Shown one piece after another: positions 5,971 to 62,436 of a stretch of 64,000 bases of DNA. The stretch is from Planctomycetia bacterium (GTDB taxonomy: Bacteria > Planctomycetota > Planctomycetia > Pirellulales > UBA1268). Numbering within the stretch: the first letter of the stretch is position 1; the number at the start of each line of letters is the position of its first letter. A program made the position numbers and the translations under genes. The stretch covers positions 15,762-79,761 of the forward strand of contig JBJTDB010000374.1 in NCBI GenBank assembly GCA_046092145.1, in the 5' to 3' direction. Below the pieces are notes generated by a model. It saw only the letters and a program-made list of their open reading frames with translations, had not been told where the DNA came from and made no database searches.

Positions 5971-6906
5971 CTACACGCGACCGCTCGGCATCCTGCCGGC
6001 CAGCCCTTGGGCCGCCTGCGCCGCCAGCAGCATCGTGGCGGCGTGGATATCGACGATCGACTCGATATCGGTGCAATACCCGCCCCCGCAGACGATGGCG
6101 ATCGGGGCACCTGCCGTGCTCGCGGCATCGAGCACGAGCCGGTCGCGGTCAAGAAGCCCCCGCTTCGTGAGCCGAAGCCGCCCGAGCCGGTCGCCCTCGT
6201 AGGGATCGGCGCCGGCGATGAAGAGCACGAGATCGGGCCGCGACCGTGAAAACGATTCCTGCACCGCGGCCTCCAGCCGCTCCAGGTATTCCGCGTCGCC
6301 CGTGCCATCCTCGAGCCCGACATCGAGCGACCCTGGATGCTTCCGCAGCGGAAAATTCTTCGCACCGTGGATCGACATCGTGAAGACCGTCTCGTCGTCG
6401 GCGAAGATCTCGGCCGTGCCGTTGCCCTGGTGGACGTCGCAATCGAGCACCAGCACCCGCCGGACCGCGCCCCGCGCCTGCATCTCGCGGGCCGCGACGG
6501 CCACGTCGTTGAACACACAGTAGCCCTCGCCGAAGTCGCGGCCCGCATGATGCGTGCCGCCTGCCAGGCTCGCCGCCGCGCCATCCTGCAGGGCGGCCGC
6601 CGCGGCATCGACCGCGGCGCCCGTGCTGCGAAGCGAACGCTCCACGAGCTCGGGGCTCCAGGGGAATCCGATCCGGCGGACTTCCGCCGGCGACAGCGCG
6701 CCTGCCATCACCCGGCCGACATACTCGCGGCAGTGAACCCGCAGCAGTTCGTCGGCCGTGGCCGCGTGCGGCTCGATGAACTCGAGCGGCGCGCCCTCGG
6801 CGGCATGCCGCTCGAGCCGCTGCCGGAGGCGGGAATATTTTTCGATCGGAAACCGGTGGCCCTCCGGGAGCGGAAGGTGGAACCGGTCGCACGGAAAGAG
6901 CCGCAT
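5971..6906 (-). CDS. histone deacetylase-family (HDAC/AcuC-like) deacetylase
   Basis: Class I/II HDAC motifs GGTHHAGRDFGEGYCVFND, LDCDVHQGNGT and GADPYEGD. Start at ATG 6906 (MRLFPCDRF). Confidence 0.85.
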   Translation of the reverse strand: MRLFPCDRFHLPLPEGHRFPIEKYSRLRQRLERHAAEGAPLEFIEPHAATADELLRVHCREYVGRVMAGALSPAEVRRIGFPWSPELVERSLRSTGAAVDAAAAALQDGAAASLAGGTHHAGRDFGEGYCVFNDVAVAAREMQARGAVRRVLVLDCDVHQGNGTAEIFADDETVFTMSIHGAKNFPLRKHPGSLDVGLEDGTGDAEYLERLEAAVQESFSRSRPDLVLFIAGADPYEGDRLGRLRLTKRGLLDRDRLVLDAASTAGAPIAIVCGGGYCTDIESIVDIHAATMLLAAQAAQGLAGRMPSGRV

Positions 6907-7061
6907 GGCGGAAAGTGTAGCCCTCCGGGGCCACCGGAGCAGACGCGGCCCCCCTCGGATTGCCCTTGCACACACCGATGCAAGAGGCGACTCTCACGGT
7001 GAACGGCCGCCTCCGCCGCCGCCCGATCCACTGCGACCCGAGAAACGGGAGCATCGACCGC

Positions 7062-8855
7062 ATGACCCTCGACTGGCTTCTTCAGCACTGGCAGCCCTTG
7101 CTGACGGCCATCGTGTCGATCGTCACGATCGTGCTGCTGCTTGTCGGCCAGCGGGCACCCGACATGGTCATGATGGGGGCGGTGATCGTCCTCCTCGCCG
7201 CCGGCGTGCTCACGCCCGACGAGGCGCTGCGGGGCATGAGCAACGAGGGGATGATCACGGTCGCCGCGCTCTTCGTGGTGGCCTCCGCGGTGGAGCGGAC
7301 CGGCGCCCTGGCGACGATCGTCGATCGCGTGCTCGGCCAGCCGCGATCGCTGGCCAGCGCCCAGCTCCGCACCATGATCGGCCCCGGCGCCACCTCCGCC
7401 TTCATGAACAACACGCCTGTCGTCGCGCTCATGGTGCCGGCGATCCGCGACTGGGCCCGCAAGCACAGGCTCTCGGTGTCGAAGCTGCTGATGCCAATGA
7501 ACTGCGCCGTGGTTCTCGGCGGGCTGTGCACGCTCATCGGCACGAGTACGAACGTCGTCGTCAGCGGCCTCGTGTCCGGGAAGACAGGACGGCCGCTGGG
7601 GATGTTCGAGATCACGTGGCTCGGGGTCCCGATCTTTCTCGTCGGCATGGCCTACCTCCTGCTGGCCAGCAAGCTACTGCTCAAGGACCGGCGGCCGGCG
7701 ATGAGCGCCAGCGACGATCCCCGGGAGTATTCGCTCGAGATGCTGGTCGAATCGGGCAGCCCGCTCGTCGGCAGGACGATCGAAGAAGCGGGCCTGCGCG
7801 GTCTCCACGGTCTTTATCTGATGGAAATCGACCGAGACGGCCACGTGATGGCCGCCGTCGCACCGACCGAACGGCTCGAGGCGAGCGACCGGCTCGTCTT
7901 CGTCGGCGTGGTCGATTCCGTGCTGGAGCTTCAGAAGATCCGCGGCCTTCGGCCGGCGACCGACCAGGTGTTCAAGCTCGACGATCCGCGGAGCGAGCGG
8001 GTGCTCGTGGAGGCGGTCGTATCGAGCAGCTGCCCCCTGGTGGGAGGCACGATCCGCGAGGGACGCTTCCGCTCGACCTACGGCGCCGTGGTGATCGCGG
8101 TGGCCCGCGATGGCGAGCGGCTGCAGATGAAGATCGGCGACATCGTCCTCGAGCCGGGCGACACGCTGCTCCTGGAGGCCAGCCCGGCATTCGTCGAACG
8201 GCAGCGGTCGAGCCGCCACTTCTACCTCGTCAGCCAGGTCGATGGCTTCGCCCCGCCACGGCACGATCAGGCGTGGATCGCACTGACGGTGCTGGCGGGC
8301 ATGGTGCTCGCGGCCACGCTCGAACTGGCGCCGATGGTGGCGGCGGCCCTGGTCGCCGCCGGCATCGTGCTGGTGACCCGGTGCGTCTCGTCGACCGACG
8401 CCCGCCGCTCCATCGAATGGGAGTCGCTCCTGCTGATCGCCGCCAGTTTCGGCCTGGCCAAGGCGATGGAGAAGACGGGCCTCGACGAGATCGTCGCCCA
8501 GTCGGCCATCGGCGCCGCCGGCGACAGCCCCCACCTCGTGCTCGCCGCGGTCTATGTAGTCACGATGCTGGCGACCGAGCTGATGAGCAACAACGCCGCC
8601 GCCGTGCTGATGTTCCCGATCGGCTGGCAGGCCGCGGCCGACATGGGGGTGAACCCGATACCCTTCGTGATGGCCGTCACGATCGCCGCCAGCTGCGGGT
8701 TCGCCACGCCGATGGGCTATCAGACCAACCTCATGATCTACGGCCCGGGTGGCTACAAGTTCTCCGACTATGTCCGCTTCGGCGGGCCGCTCAACCTGAT
8801 CGTGATGGCCCTCACCGTGATCCTGGCCCCATTCATCTGGCCCTTCGGCCGGTGA
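7062..8855 (+). CDS. SLC13/DASS-family anion permease with two central TrkA-C domains
   Basis: Polytopic hydrophobic protein. The central soluble repeats (EMLVESGSPLVGRTIEEAGLR..., VEAVVSSSCPLVGGTIREGRFR...) are typical of TrkA_C. Start at ATG 7062. Confidence 0.8.
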   Translation: MTLDWLLQHWQPLLTAIVSIVTIVLLLVGQRAPDMVMMGAVIVLLAAGVLTPDEALRGMSNEGMITVAALFVVASAVERTGALATIVDRVLGQPRSLASAQLRTMIGPGATSAFMNNTPVVALMVPAIRDWARKHRLSVSKLLMPMNCAVVLGGLCTLIGTSTNVVVSGLVSGKTGRPLGMFEITWLGVPIFLVGMAYLLLASKLLLKDRRPAMSASDDPREYSLEMLVESGSPLVGRTIEEAGLRGLHGLYLMEIDRDGHVMAAVAPTERLEASDRLVFVGVVDSVLELQKIRGLRPATDQVFKLDDPRSERVLVEAVVSSSCPLVGGTIREGRFRSTYGAVVIAVARDGERLQMKIGDIVLEPGDTLLLEASPAFVERQRSSRHFYLVSQVDGFAPPRHDQAWIALTVLAGMVLAATLELAPMVAAALVAAGIVLVTRCVSSTDARRSIEWESLLLIAASFGLAKAMEKTGLDEIVAQSAIGAAGDSPHLVLAAVYVVTMLATELMSNNAAAVLMFPIGWQAAADMGVNPIPFVMAVTIAASCGFATPMGYQTNLMIYGPGGYKFSDYVRFGGPLNLIVMALTVILAPFIWPFGR

Positions 8856-53513: not shown

Positions 53514-54350
53514 TTACTGTAGCAGCACTTTCGGCATCGGACTCACCGGCCCCTCCAGCCGCCGCGCGAGAATGCGGAGGTAGGGGGGCAGAAACGCGGC
53601 GCGGTGGGCGAAGGAGCCGGCAGCGGCCTGGGGCGACGTGTGCTCGGGTTCGGCGACATCCTCGATCACGAACCCTGCGGTGCAGATGCCGCCGAGGAGG
53701 TCCGAGAGCGAGTGGATGAATTCATGGGTGCCCGCCTCCCGCAGCCGCGATGGCGGCTCGGGCGGAAGTGGTGCGCCGGTTCCCTGCGGATGCGCCAGTT
53801 CGTACCGGCCGGCGACTCCCGGGACGAGCGTGGCCTGCAGGCTGGCGGGCGACTTGTGCTGGCTGACATAGCGGCCGCCGGGCTTCGTGACCCGCGCCAC
53901 CTCGTGGAACACCCGGCCCACGTCGGGCACATAGCAGCTGCTCACCGGATGGATGACAAGGTCGAACCGTCCGACGCCGAGCATCGAGAGGTCGTCCATC
54001 GATCCGTGCACGATCTCGAGGTCGATCCTCCGCTCGCGGGCGACCTGGCGATCGAGTTCGAGCATTGCCGAGGAGATGTCGAGCACGGTCACCCGGGCCC
54101 CGGCCGCCGCATAGAGCGGCCCGTGCTTGCCGCCGCCAGCCGCGAGGCACAGGACATGGAGTCCGTCGAGTCGATCCGGCAGCCATGCCCGACCGGCCGT
54201 GCCGCCGCCGCCCAACCAGCCCCGTGGATCGGTGAAGGCACCATCGGCGGCCGGCCGCGCCAGGGGCACGCGATCCGCCGCCAGCCGGTCCCACGCCCGA
54301 GCGTTGTGCTCGAGCGAGGACCGACGACGGTGATCGTGCGACGGATCCAT
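53514..54350 (-). CDS. class I SAM-dependent methyltransferase
   Basis: Motif I VLCLAAGGGKHG, with an acidic residue after beta-2 (VTVLDIS), and post-I/II motifs (LVIHPVS, KPGGRYV). Confidence 0.8.
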   Translation of the reverse strand: MDPSHDHRRRSSLEHNARAWDRLAADRVPLARPAADGAFTDPRGWLGGGGTAGRAWLPDRLDGLHVLCLAAGGGKHGPLYAAAGARVTVLDISSAMLELDRQVARERRIDLEIVHGSMDDLSMLGVGRFDLVIHPVSSCYVPDVGRVFHEVARVTKPGGRYVSQHKSPASLQATLVPGVAGRYELAHPQGTGAPLPPEPPSRLREAGTHEFIHSLSDLLGGICTAGFVIEDVAEPEHTSPQAAAGSFAHRAAFLPPYLRILARRLEGPVSPMPKVLLQ

Positions 54351-54351
54351 G

Positions 54352-54657
54352 TCACGTGGCCGGCTTCAGCATGCCCTTTTGGCGCATCACATCGAGCGGG
54401 GGCCCGGGCCTCCATCGTTTTCGCCGGGCGTCATAGACCGCCGGCACGAGCGTCGGCTCACCGGTCTTCGGATTGTCGAGCACGTCGCCCGCAAGCGGCA
54501 GCGTGAACACTTCCCCGCTTTTGCGGCACACATAACGGATCTCGGGGATCGAACCGGCCGACACCTCGGGTGGACGGGGCGGGAACACGAACGGCGAGAT
54601 CAGCCAGCCCGTCACCATGAACAGAGCGACGGCCATCCATACGCGAACATCTTTCAT
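54352..54657 (-). CDS. small membrane-anchored hypothetical protein
   Basis: 101 aa with an N-terminal TM segment WMAVALFMVTGWLISPFVF. It sits between the DUF1559 and methyltransferase genes, with gaps of 27 nt and 1 nt. Confidence 0.55.
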   Translation of the reverse strand: MKDVRVWMAVALFMVTGWLISPFVFPPRPPEVSAGSIPEIRYVCRKSGEVFTLPLAGDVLDNPKTGEPTLVPAVYDARRKRWRPGPPLDVMRQKGMLKPAT

Positions 54658-54684: not shown

Positions 54685-55605
54685 TCATTCCAAGTCATAC
54701 AGGGCGTCTGCCTGAACGGCATCGTCCGGGTCGCCGTCGCACACGATCCCGATCCGGTGAAACTCCATCTGAGGCAACTGCTCCGGGCCGGTGTAGGGCC
54801 CGGCCCGAAACTTCCTGGGATAGCTCTCGACATGGCCATCCACGAATACGACGTTCGCACGAACACCCGCGTGCCGAAAATGGATTGCCGGATCCGAGTC
54901 GCTTGGCTTCAGAAGGCCGCCGAGATTCTCCCGGAGGGTGAATGGCGGGGCATAGTAGACGATGGCACTCTCCGCGAATGCGATCGTTCGCTTCGTCTCC
55001 CGAACCTTGGACACCGTATTCCGCTCACATCGGCTCCGGAGCGACGGCTCGTATGTCGGCGGCAGCCAGTCCCAGCAGGTTCCGGGGCCAAGGGCCACGT
55101 TGTAGTCGAAGCCGGTCGACATCTTTCCATACCGCAGTTCGGAGACGGCCGTCGGGCCGAAGTTCGGACACTGGTAGGCCTGCACGTTTCCTTCCATGAA
55201 GGGCGTCATCGACCCTTTCTCGAAATTCAGACGATCCGTCAGGCTCGGTTGATTTTCATTGACCTCACCAAACCAATAGATGCTCTTGCCCGGATAGGGG
55301 TTCGCCCACGGGTTGGCAAGCGTCCCGGCAATCCGGGCCTCGTCATCGACCTTCCATGGCGGGAAGAAGGAGTTGTTCGCGGTCACGTAGCCGTGCAGGG
55401 CGATCCCCAGCTGCCGCAGGTTGCTTGCGCAACTGGTTCGGCGCGATGCTTCCCGCGCCGACTGCACCCCCGGCAGCAGAAGCCCCACGAGCACTCCGAT
55501 CGTCGAAATCACGACGAGCAATTCCACGAGCGAAAATCCTGCCGGCCTTCGGGCCTGCGCAGCGGCGGGGCCACGGCCCGCCATGCATGCGATGCGCGCG
55601 TTCAT
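54685..55605 (-). CDS. DUF1559 protein with prepilin-type N-terminal cleavage/methylation segment
   Basis: [45 protein letters not shown] is the canonical Planctomycetota DUF1559 N-terminus. GGGAGG lies 5 nt before ATG 55605. Confidence 0.9.
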
Positions 55606-56455
55606 GAATACCTCCCTGCGGCCATCGGTGGCGTGGCTCCAGGGCGCACGGCGGCGCCCTTGCCTGCACGAACGACGGCCAGTCGATCCAATCGCCTCAC
55701 CGGCCCACACGCGCGGGCCGTGCCCGTGACACCGCCCTCGCGGCGACACGCGCTCCTCTCGAACACTGGTAGGTCTTCTGACTCCCAGGCTCGGTCGGCT
55801 GCAGCCTTCTCGCACCGCACCGTCGCAACGATGCATGCAATGGCTTGAACACAGCCGGCCTTTTTCCCGAGACCGAGGGCTTCCCTCGGTTCGGAAATCG
55901 CCCGGATACAGCGGCGGGGCCGTCCCGGAATCGCACCGGAGTTCCCTGTTTGCCGCCGAAAACCAGATGCTTTCGACGGCCACCAGGCTCGGCGGCAAAG
56001 TCTACGGGTCGTGCCGGTCGTGTCAACCAACGCCGGCAACGCCCGCACGACCGTCACGGTTTATCAGGCCGAGCCTGTCACCTGTCAAAGGCTGCGGGTC
56101 ACGGTGAGAACACGCACGAGACTCTGACGGTTGATCGGCCTCGCGCCGCACCGCTTGCCGGCGCGGAACGCGCGGCATTTCTTGCCCACGCGTCACCACA
56201 AGTCCTTCGGCGAAAAATACTTGGAGCGTGTTCAAGCCGCTTTCGCCAAGTCGCCGATAGGCCACATGTCCCCCGGGGCATCACTGTGCCCGTCGGGCAA
56301 CCAGGGGGCGGCAGTCACCTGCGATCGATCGAGTCACGGAATGGCTCGACAGGCCTGCCGTAGAAGAGTTCGTGGATCACAACCTCGGGATGACAAGACT
56401 CGCGAACGGGACGAAGCATTCTCGCGTGATCCGCAAGCAAAGGAGATGTGGCTCG

Positions 56456-57226
56456 ATGAAGCGTATGATGTTCCTCGGTGCGCTGATTCTCGGTGTTACC
56501 GTCTGTACCCAGTCCTATGGTTTCGAGCTCCTTGATCGGATGCTCGGCCACCATCGGGGCTGCTGTGATTCGTGCTGTGAGCCCGGCTGCGATGCCGGCA
56601 AGGGGTGCTGCGAACCGGGCTGCGGAGCCGGCAACGGCTGTGCGGAACCGGCCTGCGGCGCTGGCAATGGCTGTGCGGAGCCCGCTTGCGGTGCCGGCAA
56701 CGGCTGCTGCGAGCCGAGCTGCGGTGCGGCTTCGTGCTGCGGCGTTCGGAAGAAGTGCGACCTGTTCGGCGGGCTGAAGGGCCTGTTCGAGAAGTGCAAG
56801 GCGAAGCATCGTGGCTGCTGCGACAGCTGCTGCGATGAGCCCGATTGCGGTGCTGGCAACGGCTGCTGCGAGCCCGCTTGCGGTGCTGGCAACGGCTGCT
56901 GCGAGCCCGCTTGCGGTGCTGGCAACGGCTGCTGCGAGCCGAGCTGCGGTGCCGCCTCGTGCTGCGGTGTCCGGAAGAAGCACACGCCGATTGCTGATCT
57001 CCTCCGGGCGATCCATGACGCGAAGAAGTGCCGCCGGAGCTGCTGCGACAGCTGCTGCAACGAGCCCGACTGCGGTGCTGGCTGCGAGCCCGCCTGCGGT
57101 GCCGGCAACGGCTGCTGCGAGCCGGCCTGCGGTGCGAACCAGGCTGCCCCGACCCCCGATGCCTCGGCGTCGGTCAAGGGAACGAGCAAGGTCGTCGCGG
57201 TGAGCCGCATGGTCGAGATCAAGTGA
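56456..57226 (+). CDS. secreted modular cysteine-rich repeat protein (about 46 Cys in 256 aa)
   Basis: The signal peptide MKRMMFLGALILGVTVCTQSYG is followed by three modules. Each module has a helical linker (LLDRMLGHHRG, LKGLFEKCKAKHRG, LLRAIHDAKKCRRS), then CCDSCC, then 11-aa units EPxCGAGNGC(C/A). The first two modules close with EPSCGAASCCGVRKK. Confidence 0.75.
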   Translation: MKRMMFLGALILGVTVCTQSYGFELLDRMLGHHRGCCDSCCEPGCDAGKGCCEPGCGAGNGCAEPACGAGNGCAEPACGAGNGCCEPSCGAASCCGVRKKCDLFGGLKGLFEKCKAKHRGCCDSCCDEPDCGAGNGCCEPACGAGNGCCEPACGAGNGCCEPSCGAASCCGVRKKHTPIADLLRAIHDAKKCRRSCCDSCCNEPDCGAGCEPACGAGNGCCEPACGANQAAPTPDASASVKGTSKVVAVSRMVEIK

Positions 57227-57278
57227 GTTGAGGGCAGGTAGGTCGATCGGAGATCTGTTGCCCGACTTCGGCCAGTGA

Positions 57279-57315
57279 GCTCCGCCCGGGAGGAAACTCC
57301 CGGGCGGAGTTTTTT
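57279..57315 (+). terminator. canonical rho-independent terminator
   Basis: gctccgcccgggag-gaaa-ctcccgggcggag followed by tttttt, 52 nt after the Cys-rich gene stop. The TAA stop of the convergent GTPase-like gene (57314-57316) lies in the T-tract. Confidence 0.8.
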
Positions 57316-59140
57316 ACGTTTTGAGTCGGCCGAGTGTGGTGGCGGGCTCGTCGAGGCCGGCGGCGAGCGAGCGGGCCTCGCGGGCGATTCGATCGCCGGC
57401 ATCGATCGAGCGGCTGATGGTGTCGGCGGCGTCGGCGAAATCCGAGAGCAGTGGATCGACCAGCCGTGCCGCGGGGAGGCGGGCCATCAGCGACGTGATG
57501 TCTCGGTGCAAGCCGGCTCGCACCCATGTGAAGAGCAGCCATCGCAGCACGAGCCCCCACAGGATGATCCAGACGAGCGATTCCTCGAGGAAGGCGACGC
57601 CATCGACCCGCCGCCCCTCCCAGAGATGTCCGTAGAAGTAGCTCCAGCCCGCGCGGCCGAGCACGACGACGATCAGCGACGCGAAGAGGATTTCGAATCC
57701 CCAGCGGAGCACGGGGCCATCGACGCGGCGGCGGCGCTCGCTCACCAGCCGCTCGATTCCCGACGCGAGCCACCGGCCGGTTCGATCGAGAACCGCGCCG
57801 GCCGTTTCGCCGGTCCGCGCATCATCCAGCCTCGCCCGCCCCACGAGCGGCTCGACGATCTTCGCCCGCGCCGCATGGCCCACGAGGATGCTTCGCGACT
57901 GCTCGACCTCGGCCGCGGAAAGCCCGAGCTCCTCCACCGCGTGCCACGCCCCGTGCCCGGTCGCGACCTGCTCCGGCGCGTTGCCGGCCAGCAGCCGCCC
58001 GATCAAGCCTCCCCCGGGCCGCATCCGCGTCCAGAACGATCCGATCGCGGAAACCGTATGCAGAAACATCGCGAACGGCCCGCCGTGCCAACGATCGACG
58101 AGCTCGTCGGCCAAAAGCCGCTGCCATGCCGTGCGATTGGTCTGCAGCGTCTCCTCGATCGACCGCCCGAGCAGCCCCTCCAGCCGCGCCCGCTCCGTCT
58201 TCACACCGGCAGCCAGCCGCGCGACCGGCTCCCGCAGAGGATCGATCTGCGCGGCCGCCTGCCCCATGAACCAGGTGGCCAGATCGAGTGCTCCGGTCCG
58301 CCGCACCCGCCGCGCCGCGCGTCCGACGAGTTCCTCGTCGATCGCCGAGACGAGTTCCCGGAAGCCGGGTTCCGGCGCGAGCCCGGCCGCGGCCCGCCGC
58401 GCCGCATCGAGGGCGTCGAGCCGGAAGATCCTTGGCACCACGAACCCCTGCGACTCCAGTTCCCGCCTCCAGTCGTCGCGGATGTCGGGGTCGCGCGAGG
58501 CATGAGACTGCACGAAGAGCAGCGGCCGCCCCGGGGCGAAGGCCTGCAGTTCCCGGGCCACGATCCACGACCTGTATTTCTGCGCCGTGGCGACCAAGAG
58601 CAGCACGTCGCACACCGGGAGCACGGCCGCGAGCATGTCGCGGTTGCGATTGGCATCGCTCGGGCGAGGCGGGTGATCGCCCTCTCGGTGCGGCTCGTCT
58701 GGCTGCGTGTCGGGATCGGGGCAGTCGATGAGCACGATGTTGGCCACGGCCGGGGCATCGCTGCGGACGACGCGGGCCTGCATCGCGTCGATCGGCAGCC
58801 ACGAGCAATCGATCTCCTGGGAGACGACCACGACGGGCGTCGTCGTCGTCGGCCTCGCGACATCGCTCGCGGCCGTCACGTCGCGGCCGGTCAACGCGTT
58901 GACGAGCGTGCTCTTCCCGGTGCCGGTGCCACCGATGACGCCCACCACCAGCATCCGGGCAAGCTCGCGCCGCGTGCGATCGAGCCTCGGCGAAAGCTGC
59001 TCCCACTCCGAGCGGATCCGCCGCGCCGGCGGCCAGTCAGGCCCCGAGCCGACCCATCGCGAAAGCGACTCGACGAGTTCGTCGAAGCTCGTGAAATCGA
59101 TGCCGGGCTCCGGCGCGTCGGTGGAAGGAACGTCGTTCAT
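57314..59140 (-). CDS. P-loop GTPase-like protein with C-terminal membrane hairpin (dynamin-like/DUF697-like)
   Basis: Walker A GVIGGTGTGKSTLVNALTG. Two hydrophobic helices lie near residues 480-540 (FEILFASLIVVVLG, LVWIILWGLVLRWLLFTWV). ATG 59140 forms an ATGA overlap with the upstream partner. Confidence 0.7.
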   Translation of the reverse strand: MNDVPSTDAPEPGIDFTSFDELVESLSRWVGSGPDWPPARRIRSEWEQLSPRLDRTRRELARMLVVGVIGGTGTGKSTLVNALTGRDVTAASDVARPTTTTPVVVVSQEIDCSWLPIDAMQARVVRSDAPAVANIVLIDCPDPDTQPDEPHREGDHPPRPSDANRNRDMLAAVLPVCDVLLLVATAQKYRSWIVARELQAFAPGRPLLFVQSHASRDPDIRDDWRRELESQGFVVPRIFRLDALDAARRAAAGLAPEPGFRELVSAIDEELVGRAARRVRRTGALDLATWFMGQAAAQIDPLREPVARLAAGVKTERARLEGLLGRSIEETLQTNRTAWQRLLADELVDRWHGGPFAMFLHTVSAIGSFWTRMRPGGGLIGRLLAGNAPEQVATGHGAWHAVEELGLSAAEVEQSRSILVGHAARAKIVEPLVGRARLDDARTGETAGAVLDRTGRWLASGIERLVSERRRRVDGPVLRWGFEILFASLIVVVLGRAGWSYFYGHLWEGRRVDGVAFLEESLVWIILWGLVLRWLLFTWVRAGLHRDITSLMARLPAARLVDPLLSDFADAADTISRSIDAGDRIAREARSLAAGLDEPATTLGRLKT

Positions 59141-60975
59141 CGGGCCAGCTCCCGGCCGCATTCGAGGAGAAGGCTGCGGGCCCTGGCGACCTCGGGCCGT
59201 GACGCAGCCTCGGCGAGCCGTTCGATCCGCTCGAGGCGGTCGCCGAGCACGACGTCGCGGATCGTCTCGGCGAGCACGCGCCTGCGGCCGGCCGACCATC
59301 CCGCGAAGAGCCGTTCGATGAGCGGGCGAATGCCGCGCGAGGCCGCCGCGACGGCCCCCTCGCCGGCCAGCGGCGCCGCCACGGTCACGCCCACATCGAG
59401 CATGGAGTGCAGCACGCCTGCGGCTGCCGGAATCGCGGCCGAACCGACGTTGAACAGCGCGATCGTCATCACCGGCCGTGCGATCGAGCCGACCGTCAGG
59501 CCCGCCAGCACCGCCTTCACCATGCCGGGGTTCTCGGCGGCGAACCGATCGAGTTCGGTCCGCACGAACGTCCGGTAGTCGTCCGACACCAGCGGCAGCG
59601 CCGCATGACGCCGTTCGAGGTCGGCATACCATGCGGCCCGGTCGGCCTGCACGAGCCGATCCTCGAGCATGGCGGCCAGTTTCGGCTGCGCTCGGCAGAT
59701 GCCGTCGAGCCGATCGACGAAGTCGCCGAGCGCCTGCTTGAGCGAGGCCAGTTCGACCGTTGCAAAATCGTCCCGCTTTTCCGAATCGGTGCGGAGCAGG
59801 CCGGCCCACCGCCCGGCCACTCGCACGGCGCGGCCCACCTGGCGATACCCGCGGCTCACGGCGAGGTCGAAGCCCGATCGCCGCGGCTCGAGCCACTCCC
59901 AGATCTCGTTCCACACGATCTCCCGCGGCGCGGCCGGCATCTCCACCCGCACACGGCTCTGGTCGGTGAGCAGACGGCGGGCATCCTGCCAGCCACGCGA
60001 CGACGCCTCGACGGCATCGAGCCAGGCAGCCGCACCCGCGGCCGGATCGAGCACGACGCGAAACGCCCCCTCCATCGATCGCATCTTGATGCGGTCGAAG
60101 TCGCAGTCGATCAGCCGCTGTCGCAGGTCGGCCGAGCCGCCGTCGGGCGAAAACTCGGGCATGGCGTGAAAGCTGATCCGACCCTCCGACGCAGCCTTGA
60201 AATCGAATGGCGAGGCATAGACAGCCGCCGGCTCGGCCCCCGTCTCGACGACGAACGTCCGCAGCCATCCCGCGATCACCTGCCGCTGGGCGGGCCACTC
60301 GACCATGTTGAAGACCACGATGATCGTCTTGCGTGCCGCGGCCGCGGCGGTGAAAAAATCGCGAACGGCCGCGTCGTTGTATTTCTGCTGGGTGAGCACA
60401 GCCACGATCACGTCGCACGCGTTGCGGACGAGTTCGGCCCGCTGCCAGTTGTCGCGAAGCGTGCCATCGATGTCGGGCGTGTCGAGGAGCACGAGCCGCT
60501 CGGGCTGGGTGCCGCCGGCATCCTCGCGCCACACGAGCGTGTCGGTGTCGGTCGGATCGAGGGCGTCGTCCTCCGACGACCACGGCTTCGGTGTGAATCC
60601 CGGAAAGAGCGAGGCGATGTCGAGCCGCGACGACAGGCCTCGGGGCAGGCTGACGACGGGATGTCGGGTCTTGGCCGCCTCGGGCACCGAGCGGCTGATC
60701 TCGCTGCCGACCAGCGCGTTGGCGATGAGGCTCTTGCCGGTGTTCGTGCCGCCGCAGACGGCCGCCACGAGGAGTGGCTCGCGATCGACCTGCGGCCCGA
60801 GCTTGCCGAAGAGGGCGCCGTGCCAGTCGGAGGATGCCGGAGCGGGCGCACCGAGTTCGCGGCCCAGCGGCTCGAGGGCGGCGAGACTCTGGCAGAGTTC
60901 ACGGACACATTCCGACCACGCGGCGAAGCTCGTCGTGGCGCCGGGACCGCGGGTGGATGGGGGGGCGTCGTGCAC
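59137..60975 (-). CDS. P-loop GTPase-like protein (dynamin-like), upstream partner
   Basis: Walker [20 protein letters not shown] with [11 protein letters not shown], and a large helical C-terminal half with a hydrophobic patch ([24 protein letters not shown]). GTG start at 60975 with no clear SD. Confidence 0.7.
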
Positions 60976-61142
60976 GGTTGAATGGGTCGATGGGCCGGGA
61001 TCCGCCCGGCCTGATTTACGCCGGGGTTCTCGAGCGCTACACTACAGGCAGGCTTCGGGGTTCATCGCCCACGACGCCGGCTCCGCAAGTGTGTCCTCCC
61101 CGGCGGAGCCCCGCAAATCCCAGTCTTTTCCCGAACCACCCG

Positions 61143-61964
61143 ATGCGCGAACGTCGTCCACTCTTTCCCGGTGTCATCGAGATCAACCATCAGGCCGGCT
61201 ACCGGATCGGCTGCAGCGTCTATCTGGTCTACGATGACCGCGACTGGGCGCTCATCGACATCGGCTACGAGGAGACGGTCGATGAGATCATCGAGCTGAT
61301 CCGCCAGCTCGATTTCCCGTTGTCGCAGTGCCGGGCCCTCATCGCCACGCACGCCGACGTGGACCACATCCAGGGGCTCGCCCGGGCGAAGGGGATTCTC
61401 AAGGTGCCGGTGCTGGCCCACCCGAAGGCCGTGCCGTCACTGGAATCGGGTGATCCGATCAAGACGTTCGCCGAGATCGCCGCCCAGAACATCCGCATGC
61501 CGATGCCGACGGTGAAGGTCGATCGCGAGATCAAGGACGGCGACATCGTCGAGATCGGCTCCCGAAAACTCGAGGTCTGGCATACGCCTGGCCACACCGA
61601 CAGCCAGCTCGCGTTTCGTCTCGGCCCCCTGCTGCTCTCCGGCGACAACATCTACCGCGACGGCTCCGTCGGCGCGATCGACGCCCACCATGGCAGCGAC
61701 ATTCCGTCGTTCATCCGATCGCTCGGGCGAATCCTCGCCAGCGACGTCGAGTGGCTGTTGCCGAGCCACGGCCCGGTGTTTCGCAAGGACGACGCACTTC
61801 TGAAGAAGACGATCGCCCGGCTCGAAGGCTACCTGACGCTCGCCGACTTCGGCACCTGCGCCCCCCACTGGCCCCTGATCGACGAATGGGACCGCGAACT
61901 GGCGGAGGGCCGCATGCCCGCCGAAAAACCGAGACCGGAAAAGGCCGTCGCGCGGGCCACCTGA
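61143..61964 (+). CDS. MBL-fold metallo-hydrolase
   Basis: [11 protein letters not shown] (HxHxDH-type motif), WHTPGHT and LLPSHG. Confidence 0.85.
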
Positions 61965-62094
61965 CGGTGAGGGGCTGCCCCTCGCCCCCTCACGCCATTC
62001 CGCGTTTGGCAAACCCTGACGATTTTTCCGTCAAGAACGGTCGTGCCGACTGCCGATACCTGTGAGACGACCGGTTTTCAGGGGGGACAATCAA

Positions 62095-62436
62095 ATGAAA
62101 CGGCACCTGTTTGCCGCCGCGGCGATCGTCGCCGGGGCGATGCTTTTCACGGCCGACGACGCCCGCGCCCAGCAGCCTTTCGCCGGAACGCAGGCCTACG
62201 GCTACCAGTGGGGCTCCTCGTACAACACCCACGATTGGAATCGGCTCTACCACTATCCGTATGTGTGGTATCCGCAGAATTTCTACGCCGACGGCTACTT
62301 CCAGAGTGCCAACGATCTCTACTACCGGTATCCGCAGGAGATGCGGGTGCCGGTCTACAACCGCCAGTGGCACAACGAGTATCCGAAGTCCCGCCGCTAT
62401 CACCAGGGCCACCACTTCCATCTCGACGTGTTCTAG
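62095..62436 (+). CDS. small secreted Tyr/Trp/His-rich protein
   Basis: Signal peptide MKRHLFAAAAIVAGAMLFTADDARA. The 88-aa mature part has about 15 Tyr, 4 Trp and 7 His (YHYPYVWYPQNFYADGYF...YYRYP...RRYHQGHHFHLDVF). Confidence 0.65.
   Translation: MKRHLFAAAAIVAGAMLFTADDARAQQPFAGTQAYGYQWGSSYNTHDWNRLYHYPYVWYPQNFYADGYFQSANDLYYRYPQEMRVPVYNRQWHNEYPKSRRYHQGHHFHLDVF

Follow-up and report, generated by a model that had tools for sequence, protein, structure and literature searches.

A probable dynamin-like protein pair with a non-canonical switch II, encoded by two coupled genes in Planctomycetota

In a stretch of 64,000 nucleotides from a Planctomycetia bacterium of the Pirellulales (assembly GCA_046092145.1, contig JBJTDB010000374.1, positions 15,762 to 79,761; referred to as the window, in which all coordinates are given), two adjacent genes, here termed A and B, encode P-loop NTPases which probably constitute a heterotypic pair of bacterial dynamin-like proteins (DLPs) of the BDLP/mitofusin class. 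Gene A (59137–60975) possesses a GTG start codon and encodes a dynamin-like NTPase of 612 amino acids (aa) without a strong transmembrane (TM) segment, according to the list of open reading frames (ORFs) and the translation. Gene B (57314–59140) starts with ATG, and its translation product is a dynamin-like NTPase of 608 aa with a TM hairpin close to the C-terminus. Both genes, and all motifs described for them below, are located on the minus strand. The corresponding NCBI entries, both from a Planctomycetia metagenome-assembled genome (MAG), are annotated as "GTPase" (A, MFM8635969.1) and "GTPase domain-containing protein" (B, MFM8635968.1).

Reading frames and fold of the two proteins

The region has a G+C content of 67–71%, and long ORFs arise by chance in several frames; one of 1089 aa and two antisense ORFs (767 and 524 aa) overlap this region. 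The G+C content at third codon positions (GC3) is 0.86 in the frame of A and 0.87 in that of B, whereas it is 0.50 in the upstream extension of the ORF of B and 0.71–0.76 in the antisense shadow ORFs. Due to this contrast, and because hundreds of homologues of A and of B exist at the protein level, both are regarded as true reading frames, and the adjacent, overlapping genes for proteins of 612 and 608 aa proposed in a previous sequence-only reading were confirmed. The TGA stop codon of A and the ATG of B share four nucleotides (ATGA, 59137–59140). This overlap is kept in 53 of 73 measurable related loci, and in nearly all remaining ones the ATG lies 1–2 nt past the stop codon of A. In this clade, the two genes are inherited together, and their translation is coupled.

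Structure models of A (pLDDT [predicted local distance difference test] 79.8; pTM [predicted template modelling score] 0.68) and B (pLDDT 72.8; pTM 0.55) were calculated with AlphaFold2 on the basis of 44–45 homologues. Both proteins contain an extended Ras-like G domain with G1 and a G2 threonine, and its secondary structure elements follow the Ras-like order β1-α1-β2-β3-α2-β4-α3-β5-α4-β6 in the models. N-terminal helices precede the G domain, and about 350 residues of long helices, a hydrophobic element at approximately 80–88% of the length and a last helix follow it; large helical C-terminal halves had already been recognized from the sequence. According to the models, this layout is that of BDLP and the mitofusins. 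It includes a helical neck (bundle signalling element, BSE) and a trunk or stalk, and in both proteins a membrane-binding element, as a paddle or TM segment, separates the middle domain from a C-terminal helix resembling the GTPase effector domain (GED).

When both models were compared to the PDB with Foldseek, almost exclusively members of the dynamin superfamily were retrieved (probability 1.0; E 2e-8 to 1e-4), and the alignments of 650–720 columns covered the whole query. The best match of A was the BDLP of Nostoc punctiforme (2J68/2J69; 2j69 with E 2.3e-8, aligned over the full length), followed by Cj-DLP1, SynDLP, S-OPA1, Fzo1, Mfn1/2, IniA, Drp1 and dynamin. The fragments of Mfn1/2 and Fzo1 consisting of G domain and helical bundle matched A with target-normalized template modelling scores (TMt) of 0.35–0.47. 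For B, the best match was the mycobacterial IniA (6j73, E 1.6e-6), followed by Cj-DLP2/Cj-DLP1 (5oxf), Drp1, MxB and dynamin. Thus, of the two architectures considered in the sequence-only reading, a tandem dynamin-like pair or a GTPase combined with a DUF697 protein, the former is borne out over the whole length of both models, with BDLP, Cj-DLP1/2, IniA, SynDLP and the mitofusins among the matched structures.

The latter, a pair of the YcjX/YcjF or GTPase-plus-DUF697 type, shares with A and B the generic feature of a P-loop NTPase encoded beside a membrane protein. However, neither YcjX (DUF463) nor DUF697 was matched by A or B in Pfam at E ≤ 1, and each of the two proteins possesses its own G domain and a full DLP-like helical region, so that this assignment is extremely improbable.

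The hydrophobic elements of the two proteins differ, as had been noted from the sequence. In B, a two-helix hydrophobic hairpin (residues 476–544, 57509–57715) is followed by a C-terminal helix (563–597). Its segments 473–504 and 512–544 reach a Kyte-Doolittle maximum of 2.0 (19-residue window), the AlphaFold2 model places the two helices at 476–507 and 514–541, and a hairpin of this type also occurs in distant relatives of B. A possesses an Ala/Gly/Val-rich hydrophobic patch (residues 484–546, 59338–59526) with a maximum of only 1.64, which is a candidate membrane paddle. The model of A shows low pLDDT at 497–543 and confident helices on both sides, those after the patch comprising residues 539–611.

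At the sequence level the relationship is faint. B matched Dynamin_N (PF00350) in Pfam with 27.8 bits (cut-off 27), limited to the P-loop stretch, and all of 17 distant B-type relatives matched the same family (best E 4.4e-10). For A, Dynamin_N stayed under the cut-off (19.1 bits), and MMR_HSR1 (1.6e-6) exceeded its own. The G domains of A and B aligned to each other with 36% identity over 143 columns (hhalign, probability 97.8) and are therefore considered paralogous. Some family members have already been named "dynamin family protein" by NCBI; the fold assignment of A and B is unsurprising and was partly foreshadowed by existing annotation.

Other public names, such as "50S ribosome-binding GTPase" or "EcfA2", would make A and B ribosome-associated GTPases of the Era/Der/HSR1 type or an ABC-type ATPase. 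In NCBIfam and in sequence searches of the PDB, Era, Der, HflX and ABC proteins were matched below threshold, which agrees with these names, as does the MMR_HSR1 match. However, these matches comprise about 40 residues each around the P-loop and G2, which makes those to Era, Der and ABC proteins in the PDB uninformative as a clue to the family, and they remain far below the family cut-offs (Era 20–22 bits against 237; Der 18 against 307). Neither an equivalog-level score nor a KH or other RNA-binding domain at the C-terminus was found, and an ABC signature and an ABC transmembrane domain are missing as well; in the case of the JGI name "EcfA2", the Walker A motif alone is similar. The helical bundle of about 350 residues and the membrane hairpin match DLPs instead, and we consider an Era-, Der- or ABC-type identity very improbable.

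Nucleotide-binding motifs and switch II

The conservation of the motifs of A was judged over 45 homologues; for B, 223 full-length B-type sequences were aligned, the most distant of them at about 25% identity. The Walker A motifs and all others named in the sequence-only reading translate as expected. In A, G1 reads GGTNTGKS (residues 75–82, 60730–60753) and is invariant; in B it reads GGTGTGKS (residues 70–77, 58910–58933) in 179 of 223 members, with conservative variants in the others. The G2 threonine of A, T103 in PEAAKTRHP (60667–60669), occupies an invariant column and aligns to the "TR.P" of G2 in Era and Der. Its counterparts in B are T98 and T99 (58844–58849) in the motif RPTT, which is present in 211 of 223 sequences.

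The most conspicuous feature is G3. To our knowledge, all characterized dynamins carry the switch II glycine of the DxxG motif. A has DTPDIDG instead (residues 165–171, 60463–60483), with Asp168 at the position of the glycine, and B has DCPDPDT (residues 139–145, 58706–58726), with Asp142 at this position. Both motifs are preceded by a hydrophobic strand (hhhhDTPDIDG and hhhhDCPDPDT). In A, the residues T166, P167, D168, D170 and G171 are invariant, and A-type relatives at 31–35% identity show DTPD[VI]DS. In the B family, DCPDPDT occurs in 194 and DxPD in 221 of 223 sequences, and relatives of about 550 aa with only about 25–30% identity still carry DTPDSDT. The pattern DxPDxD[STG] is common to these 221 sequences and to all homologues of A examined. 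No glycine was found at the fourth G3 position among the A and B family sequences examined. The replacement is therefore neither a local oddity nor a misalignment, and the exchange of Gly for Asp in G3 is a fixed signature of the whole clade. DTPD and DCPD had been reported in place of DxxG from the two sequences before; they withstood the family alignment, and neither protein fell into a known family with normal motifs once properly aligned.

Following strand β4, at the position where dynamins have their post-β4 loop, A contains the motif TQQKY (60379–60393; invariant columns T195–D201), which recurs in distant A-type proteins and in B. There it reads TAQKY (58574–58588), and T[AQ]QKY is present in 193 of 223 members.

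With regard to G4, the sequence-only reading had found no canonical NKxD and had named FNMVEW and VQSHAS as the nearest motifs. A canonical motif is indeed missing, but G4 is decayed rather than absent. In A, the residues NMVE (223–226, 60298–60309) most likely represent a decayed NM[VI]D, the form present in close relatives. N223 is kept throughout, close homologues have D, A, E or G at the fourth position, and distant A-type proteins show NQIL or NQCQ. Since NMxD is the G4 motif of FeoB-type proteins, the exchange of Lys for Met has a precedent. In B, the motif SHAS is followed by an invariant RD (SHASRD, residues 212–217, 58490–58507). THAD is found in 112 of 223 B-family members, THAS or SHAS in the clade of the window, and TRAD or NRLD in distant relatives. 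THAD can be read as a dynamin-type TKxD with His in place of Lys, and SHAS as its decayed form. From these sequences, the loss of the G4 Asp predicts a relaxed guanine specificity.

Because DxxG is absent and G4 only partly preserved, A and B are set apart from standard BDLP and represent a variant inside the dynamin superfamily. In the mitofusins, the region of G3, β4 and G4 reads DSPGTD...DADVFVLV...NNRWD, and the context of G3 follows the scheme DxPxxD, then ...DVhhhV, where DSPGTD corresponds to DTPDID in A and to DCPDPD in B. The local context of G3, β4 and G4 in A and B thus resembles that of the mitofusin class; this is a lead, which fits the structural matches to Mfn and Fzo1.

The altered motifs raise the question of whether A and B are a degenerate NTPase pair, that is, pseudo-GTPases or ATP-binding scaffolds acting as static membrane organizers or regulators like RdcA of Escherichia coli, which regulates DgcE. 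Every member carries Asp for Gly in G3, and Ras G60A and Gα G226A, which bind GTP but cannot switch, provide a precedent for binding without switching. In addition, the G4 Asp is variable in A and lost in B of this clade (SHAS/THAS), and the DLP LeoA showed no detectable nucleotide binding in vitro (PMC4159319). On the other hand, the Lys and Ser of the P-loop, the G2 Thr, the Mg-coordinating Asp of G3 and the nearby loops are invariant across about 25–100% identity, and most members of the B family keep THAD. Judged from these alignments, the residues of the nucleotide site are under strong purifying selection. Since dead sites usually drift, a working nucleotide site is favoured, and a degenerate pair is rather unlikely.

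Distribution and relation to known systems

When one genome of each GTDB species was scanned for two peptide patterns specific to B, at least 530 confirmed stretches were obtained, of which 79 loci were fetched and retained for comparison. Nearly all of the latter carry Planctomycetota-type titles, if evidently mislabelled bins are allowed for, and the family occurs in several hundred Planctomycetota species genomes. In an exhaustive profile search of 1.84 billion cluster representatives, 341 clusters scored E < 1e-10, and for 102 clusters E was below 1e-30; those with names are Planctomycetota, namely Pirellulales, Planctomycetaceae, Gemmataceae and the cultured species Rubinisphaera margarita, which has a B-type protein. 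Many public MAGs with this Pirellulales-type locus (L002–L005, L016 and others) bear the title "Candidatus Kuenenia", and in one case "Chitinophagaceae"; judging by the genes that they contain and by the identity of 63–80% to the window, these records suggest taxonomic mislabelling or contamination of bins.

The co-occurrence of the two genes was pronounced among the related loci and limited beyond them. A lies directly upstream of B in 77 of the 79 loci, and the other two are cut by contig ends. The divergent gene for a metallo-β-lactamase (MBL)-fold hydrolase is present in 64 of 79. A and B are 57–80% identical across these loci, and the MBL gene is 75–98% identical. As the loci represent one related lineage, the flanking synteny shows vertical inheritance and not a functional linkage with the neighbours. 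Among ten deep lineages sampled at about 30–35% identity, A is adjacent to B or one gene apart in five (L081, L083, L085, L086 and L088). In the other five (L080, L082, L084, L087 and L089) no A was found in the 3.5–8 kb flanking B. It follows that B forms the broader family. The tightly coupled pair characterizes the clade without being universal in it, and only in the lineage of the window is it obligatory.

As in asymmetric heterodimers, the loss of the G4 Asp in B could be tied to the presence of A, but no such correlation was found. In L085 and L086, a B with THAD has a partner A, which the THAD-type B of L080, L084 and L087 lacks; a B with a non-Asp G4 has such a partner in the window, L081, L083 and L088 and none in L082 and L089. 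Likewise, a fusion of A and B as "Rosetta-stone" evidence did not hold. The sequence P0328 combines the C-terminus of an A with the N-terminus of a B, its own C-terminus looks frameshifted, and it is probably an assembly artefact. The extra N-terminal sequences ahead of the B-type G domain in P0327 and P0328, the latter with the A-type C-terminus, are probably assembly errors and not DynA-like fusions.

Several described systems resemble the pair. The BDLP/mitofusin/Fzo1 class has the same domain order, namely N-terminal helices, G domain, helical bundle, hydrophobic element and C-terminal helix, and the membrane element of B is a true two-helix hairpin as in Fzo1, whereas BDLP has a paddle. 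No sequence match extends beyond the P-loop and G2, however; besides the Asp at the G3 glycine, the G4 motif of that class is NRWD or NKxD, in contrast to THAD, SHAS or NMxx in the A/B family. In Campylobacter jejuni, two paralogous DLP genes (DLP1/DLP2; 5OWV/5OXF; PMC6104087) likewise form one operon, and their products form a hetero-oligomer. Both chains were among the top structural matches of A and of B, with 9–12% identity in the structural alignments. Cj-DLP1 and Cj-DLP2 have canonical G motifs and bind membranes peripherally, whereas one integral partner is predicted in the A–B pair. IniA and IniC of mycobacteria (6J72/6J73) are an operon-encoded DLP pair implicated in membrane fission and in tolerance to envelope stress (PMC6715688). 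IniA, the top structural match of B, uses a lipid-binding loop instead of a TM hairpin and shows no similarity at the sequence level. The G motifs of IniA are canonical.

The most serious alternative label is that of an Eleos/LeoABC-type anti-phage system, in which A would correspond to LeoA and B to LeoBC, and which would sense or counter membrane damage by phages. In enterotoxigenic E. coli (ETEC), LeoA/LeoB/LeoC (Eleos) combine a soluble and a membrane-anchored DLP encoded in tandem in one operon, as A and B do, and LeoA has a compact G domain like A (PMC4159319). LeoA and LeoBC were also the only models of a defence library matching the two proteins. The PADLOC model of LeoA matched A (1.5e-6) and 40 of 45 A homologues, and that of LeoBC matched B weakly (2.7e-4) and 24 of 44 B homologues. 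Moreover, DynA of Bacillus subtilis, a housekeeping DLP, also protects against phage (PMC12998192). However, these matches are partial and span only 35–80 residues of the G domain out of 559–601 model positions, and LeoB retains a classical DxxG (PMC4159319). Furthermore, Leo is located on a pathogenicity or defence island, whereas A–B is inherited vertically in a stable context, with fixed flanks in 77 of 79 loci and in several hundred species genomes, unlike patchy defence islands. The neighbours in the window are of a housekeeping type and code for the MBL hydrolase, for secreted proteins and for a methyltransferase; neither defence nor mobility genes were found among them, and the phage and plasmid collections contained no homologues of A or B. 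An origin of the pair from defence or mobile elements is thus unsupported, and with neither a full-length model match nor a defence-island or mobile context, membership in Eleos is quite unlikely.

Among the concepts described so far, the MfnL family comes closest to B. Its member from Trypanosoma brucei (TbMfnL, Tb927.7.2410) combines a G domain with a coiled coil and, near the C-terminus, a loop of two consecutive TM helices, and bacterial homologues were reported from a Planctomycetaceae bacterium (MBV8881356.1) and other phyla of the Planctomycetes-Verrucomicrobia-Chlamydiae (PVC) group (bioRxiv 10.1101/2023.06.28.546890). B fits this family in architecture and in phylum, the comparison being one by description only. 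In the preprint, MfnL proteins are presented as products of single genes with "conserved G1 to G4 motifs"; a partner gene and an exchange of Gly for Asp are not mentioned. Should B prove to be an MfnL, novelty would lie in its partner A, in the Asp that replaces the switch II Gly throughout the family, and in how widely the family is spread in Planctomycetota. Apart from this preprint, the literature searches retrieved no study on planctomycete dynamin-like proteins. A preprint on Saltatorellota reported no dynamin homologues when PF00350 was used, which implies that the family is easily missed at Pfam thresholds.

Several points weigh against the assignment of A and B to a heterotypic DLP pair. 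The confidence of the B model is only moderate, and sequence and profile searches of the PDB with both proteins aligned no more than the P-loop and G2 region and retrieved no DLP. With the canonical G3 Gly absent and the G4 Asp lost, binding and hydrolysis of GTP are not assured. In addition, B stands without an adjacent A in half of the deep lineages sampled, and the interaction of A with B, the topology and the membrane activity rest on analogy.

Surroundings, possible mechanism and significance

Directly past the stop codon of B, a G+C-rich hairpin is located at 57277–57312 (no strand assigned), which is common to B and the convergent gene of a Cys-rich protein. It has a perfect stem of 13 bp, or a 16-pair stem in a scan, and a stretch of 64 nt containing it folds at −33.6 kcal/mol (z −5.6). 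The strong terminator that had been ascribed to the A–B operon thus exists as a hairpin, but it is shared between convergent genes, and its T-run lies on the plus strand. Following the usual rule, it serves the Cys-rich-protein gene as intrinsic terminator; for the A–B operon it is a hairpin without a U-tract.

At the other end, the gene for the MBL-fold hydrolase (Lactamase_B, E 3.5e-24) is transcribed divergently from A, as had been proposed, with its ATG at 61143. The intergenic region (60976–61142, no strand assigned) contains conserved sequence blocks and probably harbours promoters or an operator. At least 80% of 30 related loci share the blocks ATTTGCGG, GGA.GACACACT.G and AGTGTAG; the latter two, at a distance of about 45 nt, make up an imperfect inverted repeat (CACACT/AGTGTA). 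An operator or an unconventional promoter could be located here. No match to the sigma-70 consensus was found in the region.

The Cys-rich gene (56372–57226, plus strand) encodes a secreted repeat protein with a signal-peptide-like N-terminus and units of 11 aa (CCEPxCGAGNG). It consists of 33-nt tandem repeats and a higher-order repeat of 225 nt, has no Pfam match and is kept downstream of B in 49 of 79 loci. The product could be a metal-binding or disulfide-rich envelope protein. Beyond the MBL gene, a gene for a secreted protein of 124 aa (62062–62436, plus strand) with a signal peptide is syntenic, likewise in 49 of 79 loci; the protein is rich in Tyr, His, Trp and Asn and belongs to no Pfam family.

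Further away, a cobalamin riboswitch (RF00174, 55751–56002, minus strand; 65.8 bits, E 5e-14) lies directly upstream of a gene for a pseudopilin-like protein with a DUF1559/N-terminal-methylation domain (approximately 54685–55608, minus strand). Control of a DUF1559 protein by vitamin B12 is unusual, and the protein might have a role in B12 uptake. The DUF1559 gene is followed by a gene of 101 aa with a hydrophobic N-terminus (54352–54657, minus strand) and a gene for an S-adenosylmethionine (SAM)-dependent methyltransferase (53514–54350, minus strand). The DUF1559 and methyltransferase genes occur together in about 23 related loci, and the 101-aa gene was found in eight. In the deep lineage L084, the solitary B gene (6001–7824) adjoins a gene on the opposite strand for the flotillin-like FloA (PF12127; 5316–5693, minus strand). 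Both are membrane-organization proteins; as a single case, this may be coincidence.

A mechanism for the pair can be proposed by analogy with Cj-DLP1/2, LeoABC, IniA/C, DynA and the mitofusins. B would reside in the cytoplasmic membrane by its two-helix hairpin, so that its G domain and its two termini face the cytoplasm, in a topology like that of Fzo1 and MfnL. A would join B as a peripheral partner and touch the membrane through its paddle, the weaker hydrophobic element. Binding of nucleotide might lead to dimerization of the G domains, either of A with B or across A–B complexes, and hydrolysis to a hinge motion of the helical bundles. The outcome could be tethering, fusion, severing, repair or reshaping of the heavily invaginated cytoplasmic membrane of planctomycetes. 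Candidate membrane processes, among which the sequence does not discriminate, are the upkeep of invaginations, division by budding, repair under stress and defence against phages.

The Asp in switch II must alter the way in which switch II reads the γ-phosphate. Taken together, the family-wide Asp in G3 and the loss of the G4 Asp in this clade imply altered sensing of the γ-phosphate or altered catalysis and a relaxed base specificity, and use of ATP by A and B would be possible. As a speculation, the carboxylate of the Asp could place the attacking water or a cation and thereby supply in cis what dynamins gain by dimerization. Alternatively, the Asp might lock the switch, so that only the site of the partner turns over.

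In its furthest extension, the DxPDxD[ST] clade would be a Planctomycetota-centred, mitofusin-like fusion or fission machine with non-canonical switch and catalysis and possibly relaxed GTP/ATP specificity. It would form a core part of FtsZ-independent budding or of the dynamics of invaginated membranes, and would be the bacterial sister or source of the mitochondrial MfnL family of eukaryotes. We regard this combination as unlikely.

Planctomycetes divide without FtsZ and keep an unusually elaborate cytoplasmic membrane, and little of the machinery of both has been described. The invariant non-canonical switch II and the host phylum of the pair are the features which deserve experiment. A widespread, vertically inherited and coupled dynamin-like pair is a genetically testable candidate for the membrane and division machinery of planctomycetes, and a B-type homologue is available in at least one cultured species, Rubinisphaera margarita. 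Furthermore, a clade in which Gly is exchanged for Asp in switch II, while all other residues of the nucleotide site are strongly constrained, is a natural experiment on how γ-phosphate sensing and catalysis can be rebuilt. If B belongs to MfnL, the pair would also be informative about the bacterial origin of a dynamin of the mitochondrial inner membrane.

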